This document shows, piece by piece, positions 1 through 11,593 of a stretch of 11,593 nt of DNA (the stretch's first letter is position 1; every line of letters starts with the position of its first letter). Under the pieces are notes generated by a model, which saw only the letters and a list, made by a program, of their open reading frames with translations, searched no databases and was not told where the DNA came from. The stretch is from a virus (taxonomy: Duplodnaviria; Heunggongvirae; Uroviricota; Caudoviricetes): positions 1-11,593 of IMG/VR virus record IMGVR_UViG_2724679172_000001; one strand, written 5' to 3'. The translations under genes and the position numbers were made by a program.

Positions 1-55
1 GTGAGAGTCTGAAATAACCGCAAGCCGGAGATCAGCACCGGTCGCCACAATAACG

Positions 56-142
56 GGAGAGTAGGGAGCATGGTGCTCAAGCGGTCTTGAAAACCGTCCC
101 ATTGCGCAAGCGATGATGGTTCGATTCCATTACTCTCCGCCA
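56..142 (+). tRNA. tRNA-like gene, class II (long variable arm), anticodon UGA, so tRNA-Ser(UGA)-like; atypically short D-arm
   Basis: Manual fold: perfect 7-bp acceptor stem GGAGAGT (56-62) with ACTCTCC (132-138); discriminator G139; encoded CCA 140-142; T-arm GATGG / TTCGATT / CCATT (115-131) with the conserved GTTCGA box; anticodon stem 81-85 with 93-97 and 7-nt loop CTTGAAA (86-92) giving U33 then UGA; 17-nt variable arm (98-114) with a 5-bp stem. The D-arm is only a 4-bp stem with a 5-nt loop, which is unusual. G73 plus a long variable arm plus UGA are mutually consistent with Ser identity. Confidence 0.5.
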
Positions 143-388
143 GTGCAACGTTAAGAGTATTTGGCTAATTAAGCGAATGCCGGAAGCAGAACCGGATCAC
201 CAAATGCGTACAGGCGTCATCGCCGCCCAGCCAGCCAAGTGCTCTTACCATTGCGGTGAATGCGGCTAAGCGCACGCGGAACAGTTAAAACAATCCTCCT
301 TAGTGGTTAAGTCAAACATCCCGGCGTTAATTGTTAACTGGTTAACGTCACCTGGAGGCACCAGGCACCGCAACCTAATAAATACGTC

Positions 389-844
389 ATGTTTATTGAG
401 GGAAAACCAATGTTCGGTAAATTTTTCGGTAAGAAAGTCGCTTCAGCAAAAGTAGAGCTGAAAAGGGTTGAGAATCGCGATCTGATGGAGGCCATTATCG
501 GTGGCTGTTTGTTGGTGTCTGCCGCAGATGGTGAAATCGAAAAGGAAGAAACAGCGAAACTTGATCAGCTTGTCCGCTCTAATCCTCGCTTAAGTCATTT
601 TGGCAACGAAATTACCGCAACAATCACCCGATTTACTGAGCAACTGGAAGCTGGTTTCCGTGTTGGTCGCATGAATATCCTTCGCGAAATTGAAGATATC
701 AAAAATGATCCAAAAGAAGCGGAAGAAGTATTCGTTAACATGCTGACGATTGCAGAAGCGGACGGTGAAATCGAGCCAGCAGAACACAAAGTACTGGAAG
801 AAGTAGGCCGTCGTTTGGGCCTTCGTGTGGAAGATTATCTGTAA
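389..844 (+). CDS. TerB-family (tellurite-resistance TerB-like) protein; resembles the TciA-type gene of P1-like phages. Likely true start is the ATG at 410.
   Basis: ORF in the track. Acidic protein with two ADGEIE-type motifs (AADGEIEKEE, AEADGEIEPAE) typical of TerB domains as I recall them. The second in-frame ATG at 410 has an RBS-like GAGGGA at 398-403 with 6-nt spacing, giving MFGKFFGKK. Sits next to tRNA genes, as the P1 tciA region does. Confidence 0.65.
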   Translation: MFIEGKPMFGKFFGKKVASAKVELKRVENRDLMEAIIGGCLLVSAADGEIEKEETAKLDQLVRSNPRLSHFGNEITATITRFTEQLEAGFRVGRMNILREIEDIKNDPKEAEEVFVNMLTIAEADGEIEPAEHKVLEEVGRRLGLRVEDYL

Positions 845-1008
845 TGATTGGCAAGGCGCGTATTGCGTGCGCCATTGGTTTTCTCGTTTTGTCCGTGCTG
901 GTGGATTTCACCAGCAAAGTGATGTCGGTGTTGGCTGATGGGGCACTGGTTTCAGTAGCTGTGGTATTGCTATTGCCGATTATTAAAGCTGCGTTCAGGA
1001 ACTCATGA
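844..1008 (+). CDS. small hydrophobic protein (54 aa, MIGKARIACAIGFLVLSVLVDFTSKVMSVLADGALVSVAVVLLLPIIKAAFRNS), putative membrane peptide
   Basis: Hand-translated; below the length cutoff of the ORF track. Its ATG (844-846) overlaps the TAA stop (842-844) of the TerB-like gene, suggesting translational coupling. Predicted transmembrane-like hydrophobic stretches. Positional analogy to the small tciB/tciC genes of P1 is an inference. Confidence 0.35.
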   Translation: MIGKARIACAIGFLVLSVLVDFTSKVMSVLADGALVSVAVVLLLPIIKAAFRNS

Positions 1009-1118
1009 TGGATTTTTGGACGTATATTGATAAGAACCCTGGATGGTCTTTGCTATTTCTGCTTGTGATCGTATACGGAGTAGAACAAGTAGCGAAGAAT
1101 CTCAGGCGTCGAAAATAA
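1005..1118 (+). CDS. small hydrophobic protein (37 aa, MMDFWTYIDKNPGWSLLFLLVIVYGVEQVAKNLRRRK)
   Basis: Hand-translated. ATG at 1005 overlaps the end of the preceding small ORF (ATGA overlap with the TGA at 1006-1008). One hydrophobic helix followed by a basic tail. Ends 9 nt before the tRNA. Confidence 0.3.
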   Translation: MMDFWTYIDKNPGWSLLFLLVIVYGVEQVAKNLRRRK

Positions 1119-1127
1119 AAACTAATT

Positions 1128-1203
1128 GGCCCCTTAGCTCAGTGGTTAGAGCTGGCGACTCATAATCGCACGGTCACCGGTTCAAGTCCGGTAGGGGCCA
1201 CCA
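1128..1203 (+). tRNA. tRNA with CAU anticodon; closely resembles enterobacterial tRNA-Ile2 (ileX/ileY type, lysidine-modified to read AUA); would be typed Met(CAT) by anticodon alone
   Basis: 76 nt: GGCCCCTTAGCTCAGTGGTTAGAG...GACTCATAATCGC...GGTTCAAGTCCGGTAGGGGCCACCA. 7-bp acceptor stem GGCCCCT with AGGGGCC, canonical D-arm, anticodon loop CTCATAA, T-arm GGTTCAAGTCC, encoded CCA. The 5' half matches E. coli ileX/ileY as I recall them. P1-like phages are known to carry a tRNA for the rare AUA codon. Confidence 0.85.
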
Positions 1204-1656
1204 TATTTGGTTGTAACACGGCGTATGGCACATGCGTCGTTAGCGGTCTGGTGACGTTAAAGGGGTTACCTTTTCCCCTAGCTCAGGCAACAAACCAGGT
1301 AGCCGGAATGTGCAAGCCCCGTTCATATCGTCGGACCGAGGACTCACCATCCTGGCGATTCGGTGTGACAGCCGGAAGAGTACGGCGCACAACAGGAAAA
1401 GGCGTTTAATTAGCGTGAGCGCCGTTTCCGTTGTGGTAATTGCGGCTATGCGCTCGTGACGAAGCCATTTTCATTCACTACGTTCTGATAAGTGACGTCG
1501 CCAGGAGTGGCTAACCTGGCAGGTGGAGGCACCACCGCCACAACTCCTTTCAATTCATCATATAGCCGCTCAGGCTGTAACCCTTAATTAATACGAAGTT
1601 TCGACATCTCTATCGGTTTAACCGAGGGATGGTCGCGCGTGTAAAAAGGAGACGTT

Positions 1657-2232
1657 ATGTTAACGGCGAACGATAACGCGTATGCAGAAGCAGATCTCAT
1701 ATTGAGTGACTTCATCGGTCAGCGGGAACGCTGGACACAAAAGCGAGAGGAACTTTATGCCTCGTTAGTTCGCAAAGGTGTCAACATTGAAACCGCTCAA
1801 AGCGGCGATATGACGGTAGTCAGTGTTGGATTACATGGTGTGAGCGTGTCCGCAGCCAATCATGAGCCATACGTAGCGTTATCAGAGTCGATGGCAAGGC
1901 TAATTAAGTTTCTGAAGCAAACAGAAGCCAATAATGTTTTCATCGCCAAAAAGAACATCAATTTTTCTGCCGCCGTGTTCTGGATGATGAAGGGGCTTGA
2001 CGCCCGCCGGGCATCATGGCCTAAAGGGAGCTATATGTCGATGTTCCGTGGCAGTATAGGCAGCAAAGAAAAGCTCGTCGAATTCCTGCCGGAAGAAGCA
2101 TTCGATATTGTGGAAGGGTGCGATGTGATGGTTATGCCTCGGCTGGTAATGATGAATGGAGACTTACAGGCACAGACAGACTGGTTCGCCACTGGCGTGG
2201 ATATTATCGCGACTGACTGGGAGGCATTCTGA
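1657..2232 (+). CDS. hypothetical protein (191 aa); C-terminal ~90 aa is a DUF2829/Tad2-like domain paralogous to the C-terminus of the 9880-10542 product
   Basis: ORF with a strong RBS (AAGGAG at 1645-1650). C-terminal FSAAVFWMMKGLDARRASWPKGSY ... DWFATGVDIIATDWEAF aligns with FSDALMWLKDGKKVARRGWNGENQF ... PWVPSVGDLLACDWFVVE of the 220-aa ORF. The shared pattern FS-A--W-K-G--ARR--W--G ... W---V-D--A-DW is visible directly; the DUF2829 name is from memory. Confidence 0.6.
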   Translation: MLTANDNAYAEADLILSDFIGQRERWTQKREELYASLVRKGVNIETAQSGDMTVVSVGLHGVSVSAANHEPYVALSESMARLIKFLKQTEANNVFIAKKNINFSAAVFWMMKGLDARRASWPKGSYMSMFRGSIGSKEKLVEFLPEEAFDIVEGCDVMVMPRLVMMNGDLQAQTDWFATGVDIIATDWEAF

Positions 2233-2624
2233 TGTACGAGACCACAAAATTAAGCATTCACGAAGTATCCAATGTGGAGTGGAATATCGTCACCTGTAAG
2301 ATTGTATCGTGTAATGCTGCGCGTACTGATGCAGGCCATAAGAGCACGATAACAGGCTACATGGTAATGGCTTATAGGGGATTGAGAGTTCGCTTTATCT
2401 GGAAAGCTCGGCAATTGACACCATTCAGAGAGCCGTCAATGCCATTAGAGGTAGAACAGGATTATTTAAGCCTGCCGGAAATAGACGGTGCAACGCTGGT
2501 GGATTCTGATGGTCGTAAGGCTGATTTTGAAGTCAGCTTAAAGGTGGCGCAGGCCGTAATTAATAACTCACGTGGTAAGTGGATCGCTAAGGTAAAACAC
2601 GTCGTTCGCTTATCTCGCTGGTAG
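2232..2624 (+). CDS. hypothetical protein (130 aa), translationally coupled to the upstream ORF
   Basis: ATG at 2232 overlaps the TGA stop at 2230-2232 of the preceding ORF (TGATG). No motif recognised. Confidence 0.5.
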   Translation: MYETTKLSIHEVSNVEWNIVTCKIVSCNAARTDAGHKSTITGYMVMAYRGLRVRFIWKARQLTPFREPSMPLEVEQDYLSLPEIDGATLVDSDGRKADFEVSLKVAQAVINNSRGKWIAKVKHVVRLSRW

Positions 2625-2732
2625 TGTTAGATGAATGGAATTAATTTTCTAATATAACCAACTTTTTGCCAGTCTATACAGAAATAACATTCTCATTATC
2701 ATCCCCTCGGTCATTTCCTGCCTGGGGGATTA

Positions 2733-3125
2733 ATGGAGCATATCAGCAGCGCAGAAATTGCGGATATCATGATTAGGGCTGACTGCTATCTGACAGTCAC
2801 CGAAATCACCACTCTAGCTAAAGAAAAATATCCTCACCTTCATGTTTCACGCGTAAGTGTAACCAACATCATTCGGCATTTTGTGCGGTCAAGCCGAGCT
2901 ATTTGTGAGCTTGATGATCGTGTTTACCCACGGAAATACTGGTTGCATGGCCTGAACGGATATCAGTTCAAGGTGCGCGGGCGCACGCCTGAATACGGTA
3001 GCTTACTGGTTAAAAACTGTAGCAGGAAATCAGTCGAACAGGCGCGAAAAGAGCAACGAGAGCTGGTGGACATGGCGAATAAGCTGTGGAATGCCGCCGT
3101 TAAAAAGCGTGGTGTTGCTTTATGA
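2733..3125 (+). CDS. putative winged-helix DNA-binding protein; positional candidate for an Lpa-like late-promoter activator immediately upstream of pacA
   Basis: RBS GGGGGA 5 nt upstream of the ATG; stop overlaps the pacA start (ATGA at 3122-3125). Sequence LTVTEITTLAKEKYPHLHVSRVSVTNIIRH looks like an HTH. In P1, lpa lies directly upstream of pacA. The function is by synteny only. Confidence 0.45.
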   Translation: MEHISSAEIADIMIRADCYLTVTEITTLAKEKYPHLHVSRVSVTNIIRHFVRSSRAICELDDRVYPRKYWLHGLNGYQFKVRGRTPEYGSLLVKNCSRKSVEQARKEQRELVDMANKLWNAAVKKRGVAL

Positions 3126-4486
3126 GTCTGGTTAATTGGGAGGAGCACCGCGCCCGCTTTATAGCGTTGCGTGAAGAAAAAGGGATCACTGTAAAGGAAT
3201 ACTGTGAGGAGCATGGCCTTAGCTTCAATACAGCCAGAAAGCATCTCAATATGAAAAAAAATGAGGTGCGGTCGCAGGTAAAGACAACAAAAAAAAGCAC
3301 CAAATCACCTGAAAAAAAACGGGCGGGAAGAGCAACAAAAAAGCTGGAAGAGGGTGCAGAAAAAACAAAATTTACAGAAATTGACAATTCGCAGGGCGCA
3401 GGTTCTTTCCGAAGTATGCCGAGAAAGAAAACTTCGGATCATGAAAATAATGCAAATAATAACAATGAGATAAAAGAATCTGTCAGGAGATCATTGCGCG
3501 AAAAAATGGCGAAAATGATCCCCGAAGAAGATAAAAGCGCCCCAAAAATTGAGGGATCTTCAGCAATGATCCCTGGCGGTGCTGTGCAGCGTGCCACATT
3601 GCCCACTACGAATGTGGCTCGCGATATGATGAAGAACGGCGCAGAAGAACACCTGCGGTTAGCAATTCAAATGGCGCAAGAGCGCGCACTTCAGTATCAA
3701 AGCATTGTTGATCAGGAGGCCGAACGTCTACAGGCGGAAATAGACGCCTTGGGCGATAAAGAGCCAGAAGGAATGCACCCTGGGCAGCGCCTTCTCGGTC
3801 TAATCAGTGACGCTGCCTACTACATGAATGATTTTATCAGTAGGTTGGCAGCTATATATCAGTCCGAACAAAAGCTGCGACAGGGGGATGAAAAGCTTCG
3901 TCAGAGCGCTCGCCAGCAAGCATTCAAAGAGGCTGAGGCCAGAGAAAAACTCGAATTAGCACGCCTACAGGCCGAACAGCGTGGCAAAGAGATTGAATAT
4001 CGCATTGGCGCTGACGCACGCGCAGCCAGAGTTATCGCCGCCGCTATACGTATGCGTGAGCGCGAGGAACTGGATGATATCGGTGTTGCTGAATACATCG
4101 AGCGCCAGGGGGTCAGCGTCCCGGCTATCCTCGCGGCGCGCGCGGCGAAAGCTATCACTCTTCTCGAACCACCTGTTTCTGACGTCAATGATGTTGATGA
4201 TGAACAGCTGGACAAAGAGGCAAGGGAGTTTGCGACGCTTCAGGCTAACCATCCGCAATGGCTGGCAGAGCGCCGGGCGGATGTGGCAACCATTGTTGAA
4301 GAATTGGGGTGCGGAGATTACGACCGCAATGGCGAGCGTAAAGCTGGAGAATTCGAGGCCAACGACGAAGAGCTGGATATTGACCCTTCGGCAACGGCTG
4401 AAATTTACGGTGATTATGATGCATCTGATGCAGGGTATGACGCCGGAGATGAAGATATCGCGATAGAACCGCCGGAGGATGATTAA
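3122..4486 (+). CDS. pacA: terminase small (pac-recognition) subunit, PacA-like
   Basis: N-terminus MSLVNWEEHRARFIALREEKGITVKEYCEEHGLSFNTARKHL follows the HTH pattern of the P1 PacA N-terminus as I recall it (W--H--F--L---G-T---Y--E--L--NTAR--L). Long acidic C-terminus. Immediately upstream of, and translationally coupled to, the large terminase gene (TAATG at 4484-4488). Contains a GATC-hexamer cluster. Confidence 0.8.
   Translation: MSLVNWEEHRARFIALREEKGITVKEYCEEHGLSFNTARKHLNMKKNEVRSQVKTTKKSTKSPEKKRAGRATKKLEEGAEKTKFTEIDNSQGAGSFRSMPRKKTSDHENNANNNNEIKESVRRSLREKMAKMIPEEDKSAPKIEGSSAMIPGGAVQRATLPTTNVARDMMKNGAEEHLRLAIQMAQERALQYQSIVDQEAERLQAEIDALGDKEPEGMHPGQRLLGLISDAAYYMNDFISRLAAIYQSEQKLRQGDEKLRQSARQQAFKEAEAREKLELARLQAEQRGKEIEYRIGADARAARVIAAAIRMREREELDDIGVAEYIERQGVSVPAILAARAAKAITLLEPPVSDVNDVDDEQLDKEAREFATLQANHPQWLAERRADVATIVEELGCGDYDRNGERKAGEFEANDEELDIDPSATAEIYGDYDASDAGYDAGDEDIAIEPPEDD
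3436..3714. other. candidate pac (packaging initiation) site: cluster of Dam-site hexamers (NGATCN) inside pacA
   Basis: GATC-containing hexamers at 3436-3441 GGATCA, 3488-3493 AGATCA, 3516-3521 TGATCC, 3554-3559 GGATCT, 3567-3572 TGATCC and 3709-3714 TGATCA; five of them fall within 137 bp. The P1 pac site is known to lie within the 5' part of pacA and to consist of clustered TGATCA/G hexamers whose methylation controls cleavage. Confidence 0.45.
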
Positions 4487-5994
4487 TGGCTGGAGGGCGC
4501 AAGATTAAATGCGTCACCAGCGATCCACGCTGGCGCGATATGGTAATCAAATACCGCTACAACTTTACCCAGGCTGTTGTCGATATTTTTGGGATGTTCC
4601 CCTCCCACCAGCAGCAGCAGATCATTCAGTCCGTGCAGGAAACGGGGAGTAGGACGACCGTCACGTCCGGACACGGAACTGGGAAGTCGTCCCTTACCGC
4701 GATGTTGCTGTTGATTTTTATGATCCTGTTCCCCGATGCCCGTGTCATCATTGTTGCTAACAAGATAGGCCAGGTAAAAACAGGCGTATTCAAATACGTT
4801 AAACAGTATTGGGCGAATGCAGTTAAGCGTCATGGGTGGTTGCAGACCTATTTTGTCCTCTCTGACACCATGTTTTATGAGCGCTCCCGTAAGGGGATTT
4901 GGGAAGTTCTCTGCAAAGGTTATCGACTCGGCAACGAAGAAGCGCTGGCGGGGGAACATGCGGCACATTTGCTTCTAATTCTGGATGAAGCATCTGGTAT
5001 ATCTGATAAGGCGATCGGCGTAATGACCGGTGCTCTTACTGAAGAAGATAACCGGATGTTGATGCTATCCCAGCCAACAAGGCCAAGTGGTTATTTCTAC
5101 GATTCGCACCATTCTCAAGCAAAAACCCCAGACAACCCGAAAGGGATCTGGACAGCAATTGTTCTTAACTCGGAAGAATCACCGTTCGTCACACCACAAT
5201 TCATCAGGCAGAAGCTTCTGGAATATGGTGGGCGCGATTCTATTGAGTATATGGTCAAGGTGCTTGGTCAGTTCCCACGAGAAATTAACGGCTATTTGCT
5301 TGGTCGTGATGAATGCGATCGCGCTGCTCGCCGCAAGGTGTTGTTGGAGAAAAACTGGGGATGGGTGGCAACGGCTGACGTTGGTAATGGGCGAGATAAG
5401 TCGGTCCTCAACATCTGCAAGGTATCTGGTCACAGGGATAAGCGGCGCGTTGTTAACTTTAAGGTAATGGAGATGCCTGGCACTATGGACCCATTGGCCT
5501 TTGCTGACTTTATATATAACGAATGTACGCCGGAAAAATACCCGAATATAACAATCGCGGTTGATGCCGATGGTTTTGGTTCTGATACGTGTGCGCAGTT
5601 GGTACGTCGTGGTGCGAACCCGGTACGTATTCGGTGGGGAAAACCCATGTTTGCGAACAAAGACAGGGAGCGATTTGTTAATCAGCGTGCCTACGCAAAT
5701 ATTATGGCGCGTGATGCCATAAAGTCAGGGCGTATGCGGATAGACAGTGACCCTAAAACGGCAGAGCAAGCGTCAAAAATCCCCTTTTTACTGAATGAGG
5801 AAGGGAAAATGGCGATGATGCGCAAAGAGCACATGCGGCAAAAGCTAAACATCAAATCGCCTGACCGATGGGATACCTACTGCTTCACTATGCTGGTGGA
5901 CTATGTGCCTGCTAATGAAGATATTGGTGCCGAAATGGCAACTTTCCGAGATCAGGTTCTGGCGGATATCGAAATGCCGGATCTGGATATATAA
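4486..5994 (+). CDS. pacB: terminase large subunit (ATPase/nuclease), PacB-like
   Basis: Walker A VTSGHGTGKSS, Walker B LLLILDEASG, ~500 aa, directly downstream of and coupled to pacA. Gene order matches the P1 pacA-pacB arrangement. Confidence 0.85.
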   Translation: MAGGRKIKCVTSDPRWRDMVIKYRYNFTQAVVDIFGMFPSHQQQQIIQSVQETGSRTTVTSGHGTGKSSLTAMLLLIFMILFPDARVIIVANKIGQVKTGVFKYVKQYWANAVKRHGWLQTYFVLSDTMFYERSRKGIWEVLCKGYRLGNEEALAGEHAAHLLLILDEASGISDKAIGVMTGALTEEDNRMLMLSQPTRPSGYFYDSHHSQAKTPDNPKGIWTAIVLNSEESPFVTPQFIRQKLLEYGGRDSIEYMVKVLGQFPREINGYLLGRDECDRAARRKVLLEKNWGWVATADVGNGRDKSVLNICKVSGHRDKRRVVNFKVMEMPGTMDPLAFADFIYNECTPEKYPNITIAVDADGFGSDTCAQLVRRGANPVRIRWGKPMFANKDRERFVNQRAYANIMARDAIKSGRMRIDSDPKTAEQASKIPFLLNEEGKMAMMRKEHMRQKLNIKSPDRWDTYCFTMLVDYVPANEDIGAEMATFRDQVLADIEMPDLDI

Positions 5995-5996
5995 AA

Positions 5997-6013
5997 GCCC
6001 CGCGATGCGGGGC
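5997..6013. terminator. GC-rich hairpin between convergent genes (pacB on plus, 345-aa gene on minus); likely bidirectional intrinsic terminator
   Basis: GCCCCGC (5997-6003), loop GAT, GCGGGGC (6007-6013): perfect 7-bp stem. An A-run lies just upstream on the plus strand, which is a U-tract for minus-strand transcripts. Confidence 0.5.
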
Positions 6014-6022
6014 CGGTTGTGA

Positions 6023-7060
6023 TTACCAGAGCTTCGCGGCGTACTGCGTTTGGGGGAATGTGTATCCGTAACGTTCTTCGATTGCTTTGCCGTATTTTTT
6101 ACGAGCTTCATTCAGTTTAATGCCGGTCAGGTCGTCTCCAGAGGCCATCATTACGTCTAACAATTCCAGATCCATTTTATCCAACCTTGCCATTGCTTCA
6201 CGTGATGTACGTATCTTACGTTCAATGATATGGCGAATAGCCGGATCGGCATCCTCCAGCATCTTAGCGGATTTCTGCTTAAGGCTTTCATTGCGAATAT
6301 CGATGTTCCTTAAGATGTACGACTTCGCAACGTAGCTTGGCTGGTGTTTTTCCAGGTCACGAACACGATATAAGTTAAAATCGCCGAGAAGGCTGCATGG
6401 TACCGATTCGACGCCAGAATAAATTGTAATGCTCCGGCGTTCACCAACATTATTGACAACGGGGATCGTTGTCTTCGGTAGTCTTGCGAAAACCAATGCG
6501 CCATGTGCGCCAACTCTAAAGCGAGAAAGGGCATTGCTGCCTTCGATGTTTGTTGTCAGCACAACATCTGTATATGCCTCTTTACGCGCCCGGTAGATCT
6601 CGCCTTCAGGCTCAGCTTCAAAGAAGCGCTGTTCTTCTTCAAGAGCACCTACGATTTGAGAAAAAACCCTATTTTTCAGGCTTTTCTTTATGATTTTGTC
6701 GTATTTTTTTAGCAATTGTTCACGTGTAAATGTACGTGTTGTTGTAGCGCTTTGCACAACGACATGCGTGCTTTGATTGGTGTCCTCAATGATGAATGGG
6801 ATCGGAGAATATACAGACTCAACAATGTTCGACGCTTTGCCGTCGGCATCGCGGCACATGTCAACGAAGGCTTTCCATTCAGCAAGACATTTTTCAGCTT
6901 CTTCTAATATGTTTTGGTCATGCGTTAATGCAACATGGCGGAATTCCTCGCCAGCATAACTGGTATCATGGAAAACAGAGTTTGCGACCACCAGCTCTTT
7001 CCACCGTTCAGCGGTTTGCAGGAACCGTTTGTACTCTTTCTCGATCGACTTCTTACTCAT
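6023..7060 (-). CDS. hypothetical protein (345 aa) occupying the position of the P1 c1 immunity repressor (convergent with pacB, adjacent to the lox-type site); function unassigned
   Basis: Long ORF on the minus strand with an RBS-like AGGAAT before the ATG (reverse complement of 7061-7071). No catalytic motif recognised. I could not see convincing similarity to the P1 C1 sequence as I remember it. Looks somewhat more AT-rich than its neighbours by eye. Confidence 0.65.
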   Translation of the reverse strand: MSKKSIEKEYKRFLQTAERWKELVVANSVFHDTSYAGEEFRHVALTHDQNILEEAEKCLAEWKAFVDMCRDADGKASNIVESVYSPIPFIIEDTNQSTHVVVQSATTTRTFTREQLLKKYDKIIKKSLKNRVFSQIVGALEEEQRFFEAEPEGEIYRARKEAYTDVVLTTNIEGSNALSRFRVGAHGALVFARLPKTTIPVVNNVGERRSITIYSGVESVPCSLLGDFNLYRVRDLEKHQPSYVAKSYILRNIDIRNESLKQKSAKMLEDADPAIRHIIERKIRTSREAMARLDKMDLELLDVMMASGDDLTGIKLNEARKKYGKAIEERYGYTFPQTQYAAKLW

Positions 7061-7270
7061 TATTCCTACTCGATTTAGTTTTCTAACATAAAATTACTAT
7101 GACAAATTTATGTCGAATAACAGGGTGAGTAAAGGATCGAACTGTGATTTTTTGTCATCAATTTTAGAAAACCAACCGTAGAAACCACACTTCGCAAATT
7201 AAAGACCATGAAGGCAACGTGTTACTGGTCATCATCAATCTATGATGGATTAAAAAAAATCGGCATTTTA

Positions 7271-7302
7271 TAACTTTAAATAATTGGCATTATTTAAAGT
7301 TA
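7271..7302. other. rox-type recombination target site for the adjacent Dre recombinase (14-bp inverted repeats around a 4-bp spacer)
   Basis: TAACTTTAAATAAT TGGC ATTATTTAAAGTTA: the right arm is the exact reverse complement of the left arm. The 32-bp sequence is the reverse complement of the rox site as I recall it (TAACTTTAAATAATGCCAATTATTTAAAGTTA). The outer ATAACTT also matches the loxP arm start. Lies ~150 bp upstream of the recombinase gene. Confidence 0.85.
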
Positions 7303-7311
7303 GGCTATAAT
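7284..7311 (+). promoter_or_regulatory. candidate sigma70-type promoter overlapping the rox site and reading toward dre
   Basis: -35 TTGGCA (7284-7289, spanning the rox spacer), 16-bp spacer, -10 TATAAT (7306-7311). Recombinase binding at rox would be expected to occlude it. Confidence 0.35.
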
Positions 7312-7454
7312 CATGGGTAGATGATCAGTGTTGACATTACTAAAAATACGTGTCTCGAATCAAAGGCTTGTATTTTGAAAATTAACTTGTAGCTACCCTG
7401 TCATTTTTATATTTTTCGCGTAGCGTCATCTGTATATAGAGGCGAAATAGTTTC

Positions 7455-8483
7455 ATGAGTGAATTAATTATCTCTGGCAGTTCCGGTGGTTTTCTGCGCA
7501 ACATTGGCAAAGAGTACCAGGAAGCCGCAGAAAACTTTATGCGGTTCATGAATGACCAGGGGGCTTACGCGCCGAATACTTTGCGCGATCTCCGGTTAGT
7601 GTTTCACTCCTGGGCGCGATGGTGCCACGCTCGCCAGCTCGCCTGGTTCCCGATCTCACCAGAGATGGCCCGCGAGTATTTTCTTCAGCTGCATGATGCT
7701 GATCTGGCTTCGACCACCATTGATAAGCACTACGCCATGCTTAACATGCTGCTTTCGCATTGTGGCCTTCCGCCACTTTCGGATGATAAAAGTGTTTCTC
7801 TGGCTATGCGGCGCATCCGGCGCGAAGCGGCAACGGAAAAAGGCGAACGAACAGGCCAGGCTATACCGCTGCGGTGGGACGATCTGAAACTGCTCGACGT
7901 CCTGTTGTCCAGGTCAGAACGGCTGGTGGACCTGCGTAACCGGGCTTTCCTCTTCGTTGCATACAATACGCTGATGCGAATGTCTGAAATCTCGCGTATT
8001 CGTGTAGGAGATCTGGACCAAACAGGTGACGCTGTCACGCTACATATTTCACACACGAAGACAATAACGACCGCCGCCGGGCTTGATAAGGTGCTTTCCC
8101 GTCGCACTACCGCAGTGCTGAATGACTGGCTGGATGTTTCCGGGCTTCGTGAATATCCTGACGCGGTGCTGTTCCCGCCGATACACCGTAGCAATAAAGC
8201 CAGGATTACGACAACTCCCCTTACTGCACCTGCAATGGAGAAAATATTCAGCGACGCCTGGGTGTTGCTGAATAAAAGGGATGCCGCGCCAAACAAAGGG
8301 AGATACCGGACGTGGACCGGGCATAGTGCTCGTGTCGGGGCCGCTATCGATATGGCTGAAAAGCAGGTGTCTATGGTGGAGATCATGCAGGAAGGAACCT
8401 GGAAGAAACCGGAAACACTTATGCGGTATCTGCGCCGTGGCGGCGTGTCTGTGGGGGCTAATAGCCGCTTGATGGATTCGTAA
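7455..8483 (+). CDS. dre: Cre-family tyrosine site-specific recombinase, Dre
   Basis: 342 aa. Aligns along its length with P1 Cre from memory (for example HSWARWCHARQLAWFP against RSWAAWCKLNNRKWFP; LSDDKSVSLAMRRIRRE against PSDSNAVSLVMRRIRKE; GHSARVGAAIDMA against GHSARVGAARDMA; catalytic Tyr in LMRYL). The N-terminus MSELIISGSSGGFLRNIGKEYQEAAENF matches Dre of phage D6 as I recall it. A perfect rox site lies upstream. Confidence 0.9.
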   Translation: MSELIISGSSGGFLRNIGKEYQEAAENFMRFMNDQGAYAPNTLRDLRLVFHSWARWCHARQLAWFPISPEMAREYFLQLHDADLASTTIDKHYAMLNMLLSHCGLPPLSDDKSVSLAMRRIRREAATEKGERTGQAIPLRWDDLKLLDVLLSRSERLVDLRNRAFLFVAYNTLMRMSEISRIRVGDLDQTGDAVTLHISHTKTITTAAGLDKVLSRRTTAVLNDWLDVSGLREYPDAVLFPPIHRSNKARITTTPLTAPAMEKIFSDAWVLLNKRDAAPNKGRYRTWTGHSARVGAAIDMAEKQVSMVEIMQEGTWKKPETLMRYLRRGGVSVGANSRLMDS

Positions 8484-8544
8484 ATTAAATTTCTAACACA
8501 TCTTTTTAGATTGATATCTTTGCTGTAAAGTACCCTCGCCTATT

Positions 8545-8901
8545 TTGGAGGGTGCTTTGCAGAGTCAAATCACGGAATCAAGACGCTTCACGGTGGATGG
8601 TTACACCGTAACCTTCGCCGCTGGTGTTAAGAACAGTCATGCTGTCGTTGTATTCGGCATCATGACCGGGCTTGAGGCCGTCCCTGTGTTTACCCTCGAA
8701 AAAAACTGGCGAAATCTGGAGGAAGCGGAAAGCTACGTCCGGAAAGTAACCATCATTGCCGCCGAAAAACTCCTGGCTCACTATCAGGAAAATTATCGCA
8801 CTATGGTCGAGAAAATTAATCTCGCTTTCACTCGCCCCACTACAGGCTTCATCGCACCGGAGACTAATACAGGTCGCTATCCTGCAAGGGGGCGTCGGTG
8901 A
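8545..8901 (+). CDS. hypothetical protein (up to 118 aa; start uncertain), first gene of the post-dre operon
   Basis: ORF in the track. The 8545 start is a TTG; an in-frame TTG at 8557 is preceded by GGAGGG (8547-8552); in-frame GTG at 8593 and ATG at 8662 are alternatives. Stop TGA at 8899-8901 overlaps the GTG start of the next ORF. Confidence 0.45.
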   Translation: MEGALQSQITESRRFTVDGYTVTFAAGVKNSHAVVVFGIMTGLEAVPVFTLEKNWRNLEEAESYVRKVTIIAAEKLLAHYQENYRTMVEKINLAFTRPTTGFIAPETNTGRYPARGRR

Positions 8902-9374
8902 AAAATTATTACCCATCTCTGAATTGTTACCCGTCTTCGTATCCGGAATTGTCCGGGAAGCTGTTAGCTCTATTGGCTAAATCACCAACTGAATGGTTTA
9001 AGCCTGTCGTTATCAATCCGCACTTCCTGGATTACGGATCTGTTCGCACTCGTAACGAACTCAAAAACCTGCTGGCGCATGGATTCATTCGACACCGTGC
9101 CGGGAAAGGCTATCAGTTAGCGATTTCGCCAGAAGAGGCCGTGCAGCTATTCGCATATCGTGACAGCCAGACAAAAGCTCGGGTAATAGCTCAAATACTT
9201 CATAACGGCAGCACCTATGCCCGCCAGTTTGGCGGCGACACGTCGCAGTTCTTGCGGGCGGTGCGATCGCTGGAGGAGCAAGGAGTTATTGAAAGTTCCT
9301 GTATTCCTGTTCCTACCGTTCCACATATCAAACGTCGGGTTTACACCTTCACGCAGAGAGCTAAAAAACAATGA
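8898..9374 (+). CDS. hypothetical protein (158 aa), possible winged-helix DNA-binding protein
   Basis: GTG start with RBS AGGGGG (8886-8891) at 6-nt spacing. Coupled both upstream (GTGA) and downstream (ATGA at 9371-9374). The region LSGKLLALLAKSP...GFIRHRAGKGYQLAISPEEAVQLF resembles MarR/winged-helix recognition helix plus wing; this is pattern-based, not verified. Confidence 0.5.
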   Translation: MKNYYPSLNCYPSSYPELSGKLLALLAKSPTEWFKPVVINPHFLDYGSVRTRNELKNLLAHGFIRHRAGKGYQLAISPEEAVQLFAYRDSQTKARVIAQILHNGSTYARQFGGDTSQFLRAVRSLEEQGVIESSCIPVPTVPHIKRRVYTFTQRAKKQ

Positions 9375-9865
9375 TTTACGTAAAAGTGAAACGCCTACAT
9401 CCGGCAGCAAAACTTCCAGCTTATGCCACCTCCGGATCGGCGGCGATGGATTTTGAGGCTGTTGAAATAAAACCATGTGTCGATAGCAATGGTGCAATTT
9501 CCTCAAGCTGGTGGGTGTACACCGGACTGGCTATGGAGATCCCGCCCGGCTGGTGTCTGAAACTCTATCCGCGTTCCGGATTGGGCTGCAAAAAACATAC
9601 TCGCCTGGCTAACTGCGTAGGAATTATCGACTCCGATTATCGCGGTGAAATCATGGCAAAACTGATTACAGATCCCGGTGGTGAAGGCGTTTGCCTCAAG
9701 CCAGGAATGGCGGTCATGCAAGGCATTTTTGAGCGTGTTGAACCGGTATCGCTGGTAGAAGTTGATGAACTCGATGAAACAGAGCGAGGCGCTGGTGGCT
9801 TTGGTAGCACATCGGAAGACCGCGTTGAAATCAAGCGTACACCGCTTCAGTACGCAAAGTTTTAA
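9371..9865 (+). CDS. dut: dUTP diphosphatase (trimeric dUTPase)
   Basis: The five canonical dUTPase motifs are present: GSAAMDF (I), YPRSGLG (II), GIIDSDYRGEI (III), MAVMQGIF (IV), RGAGGFGSTSE (V). Confidence 0.9.
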   Translation: MIYVKVKRLHPAAKLPAYATSGSAAMDFEAVEIKPCVDSNGAISSSWWVYTGLAMEIPPGWCLKLYPRSGLGCKKHTRLANCVGIIDSDYRGEIMAKLITDPGGEGVCLKPGMAVMQGIFERVEPVSLVEVDELDETERGAGGFGSTSEDRVEIKRTPLQYAKF

Positions 9866-9879
9866 GTAGAGGAAGGATT

Positions 9880-10542
9880 ATGGTCAGCACTTTTCAGGTG
9901 TTCCCCAAATACAAATGCCACAGCATCATTCGGGCATCGAAAATCAAAGATATTGTTATTGTCGGCAAAGCTTATGCGCCCATTTTTGGCAGTATCGAAG
10001 TCGTTGAGCCAAAAGGAATGACGCTTCGTGTTGATGGTGTGTTCTTGGAAAAATTCCGACCGCAAATAGGAGGATATCTCGTCACTGCTGAAAATGGCTA
10101 TCTGGTCTATGTGCCAGAGAAAGCATTTGAAAAATGCTATAGCCGGGTTAACGACGCCTCCGAAAATGGGGTATCGCTCAGCATTGAAGGTCACAATGGG
10201 GTGACATTCATTACAGCCAGGGACGTAACTATTTCTGCTGGCGGTATCGCTACTCTACAAGAAGAAATCGACCTTGAAGCAGCCGACTTTTCTGACGCGC
10301 TGATGTGGCTGAAGGATGGCAAGAAAGTTGCCCGGCGCGGGTGGAACGGCGAAAACCAATTCTGCTGGCTGGTTCCTGAAGGACAGTACCCGGCACGAAT
10401 GGAAGCCATTAAGGGATATTTCCCCGGCGATCTCGTTCCGTATGGTGCTTATTTCGCCTTAAAAAATGCACAAGGTGTAGTTGTTCCGTGGGTGCCTTCG
10501 GTAGGCGACTTACTGGCGTGTGACTGGTTTGTAGTGGAGTGA
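9880..10542 (+). CDS. two-domain protein (220 aa): N-terminal domain of unknown function plus C-terminal DUF2829/Tad2-like domain
   Basis: Strong RBS AGGAAGG before the ATG. C-terminal FSDALMWLKDGKKVARRGWNGENQF ... VVPWVPSVGDLLACDWFVVE fits the DUF2829 signature as I recall it (F-EAL-ALK-GKKV-R-GWNG ... LA-DW-IV) and is paralogous to the C-terminus of the 1657-2232 product. Confidence 0.65.
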   Translation: MVSTFQVFPKYKCHSIIRASKIKDIVIVGKAYAPIFGSIEVVEPKGMTLRVDGVFLEKFRPQIGGYLVTAENGYLVYVPEKAFEKCYSRVNDASENGVSLSIEGHNGVTFITARDVTISAGGIATLQEEIDLEAADFSDALMWLKDGKKVARRGWNGENQFCWLVPEGQYPARMEAIKGYFPGDLVPYGAYFALKNAQGVVVPWVPSVGDLLACDWFVVE

Positions 10543-10548
10543 TTTGAC

Positions 10549-11349
10549 ATGGAAAGCACCAAAACAATTCAATACCGCTTGCGTAATGGCCTGCTGGTGG
10601 CTGTTAACGCTGATATGTCACTGCCGTTTGACACGATAGAACGCACTATCATGACGTATCTCGGCTTTAATGAAGAGCTGAATGAAGAGCATGGCGTAGC
10701 TATATGGAGTGATGCAGAAAGCGGCGTTCATCGTTACATCACCGCCAGGGGCAAAGACTACTCTCTGGAAGAACTGTTTACCCTTGCACAGTCTTTCGAA
10801 TGTGTAGCATTAGACATGTTTAATGATCCTGCTATAGCGCAACGACTTATACGCGAGCTTGGACTATCCGTTACACCAATTATCTTTAAGAATGGCAGCC
10901 TGACTGGCACATGGCGCGTAGAACGCATCTCAAACTACCTTCCATATAACCGACAGTTAAATGGAGTAATCTCCGGCGTTAATCAGCCCGTAGCGTGTGA
11001 AAATGTAAACCTGGTTGCCGCTGTTTTGGCAACCGCATGTCGTGTTATCGGTTTGGCTAAACAGGCTTTTATTCATTTCCCAAATGGTGCAGAAGGTAGC
11101 GCAGAGATTATCGCGTGTGATTTCGAATTTACCTGGATGCTACGCGAATATCTGGACCAAACAGTGTTCCGCGCCGAAGAACTGGATATGTATATCACGT
11201 CAACGATTCCTGATGATGTGCGTGCTGAAGCAATCGCCACAGCAAGGGCCAAATGCCGTGCGGCGATTGCAGAGCAGGCCAAAGAAGAACCGTCCGATGA
11301 AGCCGTGGCTGATGTTGAAGCAGAGGTAGCGGAGGATGCTGACGCCTAA
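10549..11349 (+). CDS. hypothetical acidic protein (266 aa) with a poly-acidic C-terminal tail
   Basis: ORF with GGAG 9 nt upstream. By my hand count about 41 Asp+Glu against 22 Lys+Arg. C-terminus EEPSDEAVADVEAEVAEDADA. Last gene of the operon; followed by an intrinsic terminator. Confidence 0.6.
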   Translation: MESTKTIQYRLRNGLLVAVNADMSLPFDTIERTIMTYLGFNEELNEEHGVAIWSDAESGVHRYITARGKDYSLEELFTLAQSFECVALDMFNDPAIAQRLIRELGLSVTPIIFKNGSLTGTWRVERISNYLPYNRQLNGVISGVNQPVACENVNLVAAVLATACRVIGLAKQAFIHFPNGAEGSAEIIACDFEFTWMLREYLDQTVFRAEELDMYITSTIPDDVRAEAIATARAKCRAAIAEQAKEEPSDEAVADVEAEVAEDADA

Positions 11350-11404
11350 AAACATCACCGAATTAGCTGGCTGACAGCAGAAAAAATCATTGAGTGATAG
11401 TAGG

Positions 11405-11434
11405 AAGCCCGCCTGGTTGAGCGGGCTTCTTTTC
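11405..11434 (+). terminator. intrinsic terminator closing the post-dre operon (also immediately downstream of the convergent doc gene)
   Basis: AAGCCCGC (11405-11412), loop CTGGTTGA, GCGGGCTT (11421-11428), followed by CTTTTC. 8-bp stem plus T-tract. Confidence 0.6.
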
Positions 11435-11593
11435 AAATATTGGAACCAAATAATTCACGTAGTTTTTCCGCTACTGAAGATACGGGGATTTCACCAGTTG
11501 CGGCCCCCACCGCAAGTTCCACCAGCACGGGAGAATCATATACCTGTATACCGTTACGGCGTAGAAATAGCAGCGCACTGTTTAGCGCGGTAC
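11433..11593 (-). CDS. doc: Doc toxin (Fic-family kinase of the phd-doc addiction module), C-terminal part; gene continues beyond the window end
   Basis: Reverse-strand translation reads ...TALNSALLFLRRNGIQVYDSPVLVELAVGAATGEIPVSSVAEKLRELFGSNI*, which matches the C-terminus of P1 Doc as I recall it (...TALNSALLFLRRNGVQVFDSPVLADLTVGAATGEISVSSVADTLRRLYGSAE). Stop is the reverse complement of 11433-11435. Truncated by the window edge, so absent from the ORF track. Confidence 0.8.
   Translation of the reverse strand, partial: TALNSALLFLRRNGIQVYDSPVLVELAVGAATGEIPVSSVAEKLRELFGSNI

Follow-up and report, generated by a model that had tools for sequence, protein, structure and literature searches.

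The 11,593-nt viral sequence analyzed here (positions 1 to 11,593 of IMG/VR record IMGVR_UViG_2724679172_000001, referred to as the window) is, judged by its sequence, a D6-like plasmid prophage, with positions 3000-6100 aligning end to end with phage D6 at 99.2% identity (megablast). Within its pacA gene, which encodes the small terminase (pacase A subunit), five GATC motifs at 3436-3573 likely constitute the recognition part of the pac site at which this phage-plasmid starts headful packaging. The location of the cluster, its conservation, its motif, the synteny of the region and a methylase gene in the D6 genome support this assignment. The cluster is the expected homologue of a classic element and not a new kind of system; what is new in the D6 form is probably its single arm and its oriented GGATCA hexamer. 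A sequence-only reading of the window had proposed a cluster of six hexamers as the headful packaging start. Comparative evidence upholds that cluster as the D6-type counterpart of P1 pac, but the inclusion of the sixth hexamer, the likeness to the P1 layout and the description of the hexamers need correcting.

GATC motifs in pacA and their conservation

To compare this region among relatives, pacA genes were gathered from PLSDB, one-genome-per-species contigs and IMG/VR, yielding a D6-lineage set of 28 distinct gap-free genes that range from 100% to ~75% DNA identity (73-74% protein). In the window, GATC occurs at positions 3437, 3489, 3517, 3555, 3568 and 3710 (offsets 315-592 of the 1365-nt pacA), in the hexamers GGATCA, AGATCA, TGATCC, GGATCT, TGATCC and TGATCA, in that order. 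All six were found again exactly where they had been described, within 3436-3714 (279 bp), with five of them in 3436-3572 (137 bp), and the five core sites do fall in the 5′ third of the small terminase gene (pacA offsets 315-450). The core GATCs are at offsets 315, 367, 395, 433 and 446, with spacings of 52, 28, 38 and 13 bp and a largest internal gap of 52 bp. The individual sites, together with one isolated hexamer further upstream, are as follows:

3436-3442, plus strand: site 1, GGATCAT, read as GAT-CAT (Asp-His) in reading frame 0
3488-3495, plus strand: site 2, AGATCATT (GGATCATT in the 74% relatives), reading frame 1
3513-3522, minus strand: site 3, GGGATCATTT on the minus strand (AAATGATCCC on the plus strand), Met-Ile-Pro in reading frame 2
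3554-3559, plus strand: site 4, GGATCT (GGATCA or AGATCA in relatives), reading frame 1
3565-3573, minus strand: site 5, GGGATCATT on the minus strand (AATGATCCC on the plus strand), Met-Ile-Pro in reading frame 2
3709-3714, no strand assigned: sixth hexamer, TGATCA (GACCAG or GACATT in the 73-74% relatives)
3182-3189, plus strand: GGGATCAC, an isolated GGATCA hexamer in the part of pacA that encodes the helix-turn-helix (HTH), conserved in all D6-lineage genes

Read over both strands, the core sites share the asymmetric consensus GGATCA(T), which sites 1, 2 and 4 carry on the plus strand and sites 3 and 5 on the minus strand; in the 74% relative GGATCA is present at all five. The hexamers had been described as less uniform than the P1 consensus; they have indeed diverged from TGATCA/G, but reading both strands recovers a common asymmetric motif in place of irregularity. 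The orientation of the array runs plus, plus/minus, plus, minus, with spacings of 52/28/51 bp (sites 1-2, 2-3 and 3-5), and site 5 is an exact direct repeat of site 3 at a distance of 51 bp. The D6 genome contains 14 copies of GGATCAT, of which three lie within the cluster, and the window contains six against 1.5 expected; these counts are descriptive only, the motif having been derived from the cluster itself.

The cluster lies in the part of pacA that is otherwise the least conserved. PacA consists of an N-terminal HTH (residues 7-42, a weak HTH_23 match), a variable linker (residues ~46-160) and a conserved C-terminal part; between sub-lineages the protein identity is 39-40% in the linker and 78-89% in the flanking domains. 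When four sub-lineage representatives are compared, 46% of the columns and 13% of the 4-mers in the linker do not vary, and the five core GATCs are all invariant (P ~1e-5 for five random 4-mers). Ten invariant runs of at least 5 nt were found in the linker, four of which are CGGATCA, GATCATT, AAATGATCCC and AATGATCCC. In the wider D6-lineage set, 26 of the 28 distinct genes carry all five GATCs at identical offsets.

Each site contributes to this pattern. At site 1, CGGATCA is unchanged across the D6 sub-lineages despite diverging flanks, and the Asp codon is GAT in all representatives. GATCATT at site 2 is constant although the encoded residues go from Arg-Ser-Leu to Gly-Ser-Phe, and the position of this site is shared with an Enterobacter relative with 56% PacA identity (locus L011, offset 379). 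Site 3 is an invariant run of 10 nt whose 28-bp distance to site 2 is also found in L011. At site 4 the GATC is constant while its codon changes from Gly to Arg and its flanks vary, and site 5 is a 9-nt invariant run with a position common to L011 offset 470. The core GATCs are thus spread over three reading frames, are retained at sites 2 and 4 where residues differ (Arg/Gly, Leu/Phe, Ser/Leu), and have synonymous positions that are fixed in every clade (GAT and not GAC, ATC and not ATT or ATA). By these three features, the constraint acts on the DNA and not on the protein. We propose that the signal is in the linker-coding part, with the variable linker tolerating a constraint at the DNA level.

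The opposite explanation, that selection acts on short peptides of the PacA linker (Asp-His, Gly/Arg-Ser and two copies of Met-Ile-Pro) and that the GATCs are a by-product, is very unlikely. Both copies of Met-Ile-Pro and the Asp-His pair are invariant, and when codons were randomized with the peptide fixed, the peptide alone yielded a mean of 2.0 GATCs. The same randomization, however, gave five or more with P = 0.013, and selection on the peptide does not account for GATCs that persist through residue changes, for synonymous positions held in every clade when only 36% of codons are identical at conserved residues gene-wide, or for one DNA motif that occurs in three reading frames and on both strands.

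The sixth GATC (3710) serves as an internal control. In the 73-74% relatives it is destroyed, and the GACCAG form arises by a synonymous change from GAT to GAC, a kind of loss never seen in the core sites. The sixth hexamer is therefore probably outside the element, and its earlier inclusion in the site is not sustained. It is adjoined by a perfect match to the integration host factor (IHF) consensus at 3695-3707, and the pair was considered as a possible right arm; this candidate was rejected as neither the hexamer nor the IHF match is kept in the 73-74% relatives. The isolated hexamer at 3182-3189 has a counterpart at the equivalent position in the Serratia lineage, but its conservation is uninformative because it lies within a protein-conserved segment, and a role as a distal element of the site is speculative.

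Comparison with P1 pac and rival explanations

The pac site of P1 spans 161 bp and holds seven Dam hexamers; their methylation state controls cleavage, and changing the hexamers synonymously cuts the P1 titre ~9-fold (PMC10028697). P1 pacA has four TGATCA hexamers between offsets 194 and 233 and three TGATCA/G hexamers between 324 and 352. The annotated cuts are at 275-285 with the IHF site just to their left; the 161-162-bp site is cut between the HEX4 and HEX3 groups, which are separated by a spacer of ~90 bp. The D6 cluster resembles this site in several respects. It lies inside pacA, in the linker-coding segment downstream of the HTH-coding part, and in the protein alignment it starts at the position of the right-hand HEX3 group of P1. 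Both sites consist of several hexamers with a GATC core in multiple reading frames, and both phages encode a Dam-type methylase; in D6 this is D6_63, a D12-class N6-adenine methylase (PF02086, 1.9e-56) encoded outside the window. The order lpa-pacA-pacB-c1-lox/rox-cre/dre is also common to both, and the D6 rox site is 3.7 kb downstream of the cluster, compared with 4.0 kb from pac to lox in P1. In the window these features, which agree with the labels in D6 records (lpa, pacA, pacB, c1, the rox site, dre and a dUTPase gene), are:

2733-3125: lpa (PF25716 match, 1.4e-56)
3122-4486, plus strand: pacA, small terminase, pacase A subunit (PHROG 1711 terminase, 1.5e-183; annotated pacA in AY753669)
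4486-5994, plus strand: pacB, large terminase, pacase B subunit (PHROG_2 terminase large subunit, 2.4e-40; D6 annotation)
6023-7060, minus strand: c1
7271-7302, no strand assigned: rox site, the target of the Dre recombinase, TAACTTTAAATAATTGGCATTATTTAAAGTTA (sequence found; annotated in AY753669)
7455-8483: dre

Several observations weigh against identifying the cluster as a pac site of the P1 kind. The D6 hexamer GGATCA(T) is asymmetric and occurs in both orientations, whereas that of P1 is the palindromic TGATCA; TGATCA and TGATCG are absent from the five core sites, and TGATCA is present only at the non-conserved sixth. D6 has a single cluster of five over 135 bp and no clear spacer, in contrast to the 4 + 3 arrangement around the ~90-bp spacer of P1. 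There are no GATCs at offsets 63-314 of D6-lineage pacA genes, the stretch that holds the left arm in the other lineages, so that a left (HEX4-like) arm is missing, and in the 1987 work of Sternberg and Coulby both arms of P1 pac reportedly mattered. No match to the IHF consensus WATCAANNNNTTR with up to one mismatch was found inside 3436-3573, a consensus scan being a weak test for IHF, and the perfect match next to the sixth hexamer is the non-conserved one described above. Two D6-lineage genes (L025 and L049) have each lost one of the five GATCs by a point change, from which it follows that no single site is indispensable. Lastly, with 325 sites placed under a uniform null, at least five GATCs in 135 bp arise somewhere in a random 91-kb genome with P = 0.27, and 81 of 300 third-order Markov genomes contain such a group. 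The PacA proteins themselves differ, with only 21% identity in an alignment over the full length. The claim that the D6 cluster mirrors the P1 arrangement is thus borne out for a counterpart inside pacA, but not for its layout, which is one cluster with no left arm and no conserved IHF consensus.

These scan statistics also bear on whether the cluster could be a chance assembly without function. GATC density is numerically higher than the element-wide background, as the sequence-only reading required (37 per kb in the core and 21.5 per kb in the six-site interval, against 3.57 per kb in the D6 genome and 3.9 per kb in the window), and the cluster is the sole place in the complete D6 genome (91,159 bp) with at least four GATCs in 137 bp. 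An unguided scan, however, is not significant, either genome-wide or over the 11.6-kb window (P = 0.054 for at least five in 135 bp and 0.11 for at least six in 277 bp). Density was for this reason dropped as proof and conservation relied on instead; the weight of the cluster comes from its location and conservation. The ease with which five GATCs fall within 135 bp at random (somewhere in 27% of 91-kb genomes, and in 5% of 11.6-kb windows) speaks for a functionless chance cluster, but the group falls in a pre-specified 345-bp linker segment of pacA, for which the density has P ~0.001. It is furthermore invariant where the linker DNA is otherwise not, and parallel GATC clusters occur in the other P1-group lineages examined. 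Taken as sequence evidence, the conservation and synonymous-site data effectively refute chance, which we consider extremely improbable.

A different role for the same DNA is somewhat less improbable but still unlikely, namely a Dam/SeqA-related cis element that has no packaging function and acts either in sequestration of hemimethylated DNA or in methylation-sensitive transcription or translation from pacA to pacB. Clustered GATCs are a generic target of SeqA and of Dam-dependent regulation. The conservation data establish a constraint on GATC at the DNA level and are silent on which protein reads it, and the missing left arm and IHF site loosen a strict analogy to P1. On the other hand, the position is homologous to the experimentally defined pac of P1 in the same gene, the cluster is unique in the D6 genome, and no promoter-like site was found in 3000-4600. 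SeqA, moreover, needs only GATC. Since the D6 motif extends past GATC to an oriented GGATCA(T) and its orientation is conserved, a sequence-specific reader is favored over SeqA. A promoter or RNA element as the explanation of the interval was likewise rejected, as neither a sigma-70-like promoter nor an Rfam family was found to overlap it. We therefore regard the cluster as probably a Dam-sensitive pac site, a one-sided variant of the P1 type on the sequence comparisons made here.

The hexamer ATGCCG at 3416-3421 does not vary within the D6 lineage and exactly matches the 6-mer immediately left of the P1 cut. Since the P1 relatives L086 and L094 lack it, as do the spacers of other lineages, it was rejected as a chance match.

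GATC clusters in other P1-group lineages

Among the lineages sampled, a lineage-conserved GATC cluster in the linker was found in the P1, Serratia, Pantoea, Citrobacter and Enterobacter lineages; a Leclercia-type group (L014, L055 and L059) has fewer linker GATCs (3-5) that are partly conserved. Clusters in Enterobacter, Pantoea, Serratia, Citrobacter and the P1 relatives are always bipartite, whereas that of the D6 lineage is single. The left groups in the other lineages often have a strict 12-bp spacing and three to six copies (up to six in Pantoea). The closest comparison is provided by the Enterobacter sister (p60214CZ_1 type, 56% PacA identity), which shares the GGGATCATT motif and retains sites 2, 3 and 5 along with the 28-bp spacing. 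This relative has three left-arm hexamers at a place where the D6-type genes are A-rich and lack 12 nt. Because the examined outgroups possess a left arm, the parsimonious interpretation of these sequences is that it was lost in the D6 lineage.

Individual parts of the right-hand group can be traced across lineages. In L011, the sequence at offset 407, which is aligned with D6 site 3, is AAATGATC, and that at offset 470 is AAAATGATC. Inspection of flanks, with no formal alignment, showed AAAA[AT]GATC in the right-hand group of Citrobacter, Leclercia, Pantoea and Serratia pacA. From these comparisons, site 3 (AAAATGATC, Lys-Met-Ile) appears to be an ancestral anchor common to most P1-group lineages. 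A full-text literature search found no experimental study of the pacA GATC clusters of the Enterobacter, Pantoea, Serratia, Citrobacter or Leclercia types.

In PacA, the sequence of the putative recognition helix is NTARKHL in both lineages with GGATCA and NTARR[E/Y/Q]L in the TGATCA lineages. This is suggestive of a helix change that tracks the hexamer switch, a correlation that represents a single evolutionary event. It is possible, and we put it forward tentatively as something short of an even chance, that the D6 lineage carries a re-engineered P1-type pac in which the left arm was lost, the palindromic TGATCA gave way to the oriented GGATCA(T) and the array became roughly inverted. If this were true, the site would represent a natural specificity switch of a methylation-sensing terminase and would offer phagemid tools a second packaging signal, orthogonal to that of P1. 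D6 and P1 together constitute a natural experiment on site recognition by a methylation-gated terminase, in which the core GATC is shared and the flanking base, orientation and arm structure differ.

Outside the P1 group, P22 gene 3, SPP1 gene 1 and Sf6 have a packaging signal inside the small-terminase gene that is read by the encoded protein. They are like D6 in that the signal is embedded in this gene, but differ in that their sites are without Dam hexamers, that methylation control is not known in them, and that their terminases are unrelated in sequence. A further example of a pac peak within termS has been described (PMC9928086).

Two stretches to the left of the cluster were observed in the same alignments. 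At 3369-3387, 50-70 bp left of site 1, the sequence AATTTACA-N5-TGACAA forms a conserved DNA island in the divergent linker that persists as far as the Enterobacter relative with 56% PacA identity; it might belong to the pac site or reflect a conserved Phe-Thr-x-x-Asp peptide. Positions 3250-3380, just upstream of the cluster, hold long A-tracts (A8, A8, A8, A6 and A6) with Lys-rich coding, at the place of the left hexamer arm in other lineages; such tracts might bend the DNA intrinsically. Separately, an exact match to the D6-type pac core was found at locus L117 on a 718,899-bp contig (VFQR01000010.1), pointing to integration of a D6-like element or to a mis-assembled contig.

Proposed packaging model and genetic context

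By homology with P1, we infer the following course for how PacA binds, what part methylation plays, where the cut falls and which way packaging runs. During lytic growth, the N-terminal HTH of PacA would bind the GGATCA(T) hexamers, and N6-adenine methylation of their GATC cores, supplied by host Dam or by the phage D12-class methylase, would be needed for binding or for cutting. PacA would then bring in PacB, which would cut the concatemer within or beside the cluster. Headful packaging would proceed toward pacB, c1 and rox, a direction proposed because the linkage to rox is conserved like that of pac and lox in P1. In P1, the recombination site ends up within the terminally redundant part of the first headful. 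By the same logic rox would be in the terminal redundancy of the first D6 headful, and Dre could circularize the injected DNA. The full-text literature searched contained no description of a D6 pac site; the D6 genome paper of Gilcrease and Casjens (2018) was not covered by it.

Contig termini were also considered as evidence of physical DNA ends and were rejected, with one break against 13 other IMG/VR contigs that continue through the same positions. The break is in IMG isolate assembly 2537562191, where two contigs (loci L043 and L054) meet at 3441-3450, just 3′ of site 1, and share 10 nt, ATGAAAATAA. This anecdotal case could be a physical DNA end or a mere assembly break. Among metagenome contigs, none of 10 was seen to end at the cluster.

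The partners in this model were characterized by similarity searches. PacB is presumed to be the nuclease/ATPase partner of PacA; it has a weak Terminase_6N match (E 5e-4, 20.1 bits, below the Pfam gathering cut-off of 22 bits). A tblastn search with PacA matched 142 PLSDB plasmids, mostly from E. coli and Salmonella, and the same type of search of a phage collection gave D6 as the sole match. A PacA profile search of solved structures (PDB) gave no meaningful match. D6-like phage-plasmids are thus common in E. coli and Salmonella, and resistance genes are carried by some P1-like phage-plasmids (PMC5241659, PMC9603915). The location of pac defines the start of headful packaging and of transduction of adjacent DNA, and knowledge of it would permit D6-based phagemids orthogonal to P1-based ones.

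A few further features of the window were noted. A perfect match to the IHF consensus, AATCAAAGGCTTG, lies at 7358-7370, between rox and the start of dre. A tRNA gene with anticodon CAT at 1128-1203 (plus strand) was detected by Rfam (tRNA, 66 bits) and assigned to tRNA-Met by ARAGORN, although it could be of the Ile2 or fMet type instead of Met; the D6 record MF356679 has no feature annotated at the counterpart of this position. The tRNA-Ser(UGA) at 56-142 agrees with an annotated D6 tRNA. Just upstream of lpa and pacA, the open reading frame at 1657-2232 (plus strand) corresponds to D6 orf6, annotated as hypothetical, and carries at its C terminus a domain resembling Tad2 (Thoeris anti-defence 2; PF11195, E 3e-9), making it a possible anti-defence gene on the strength of this domain match.

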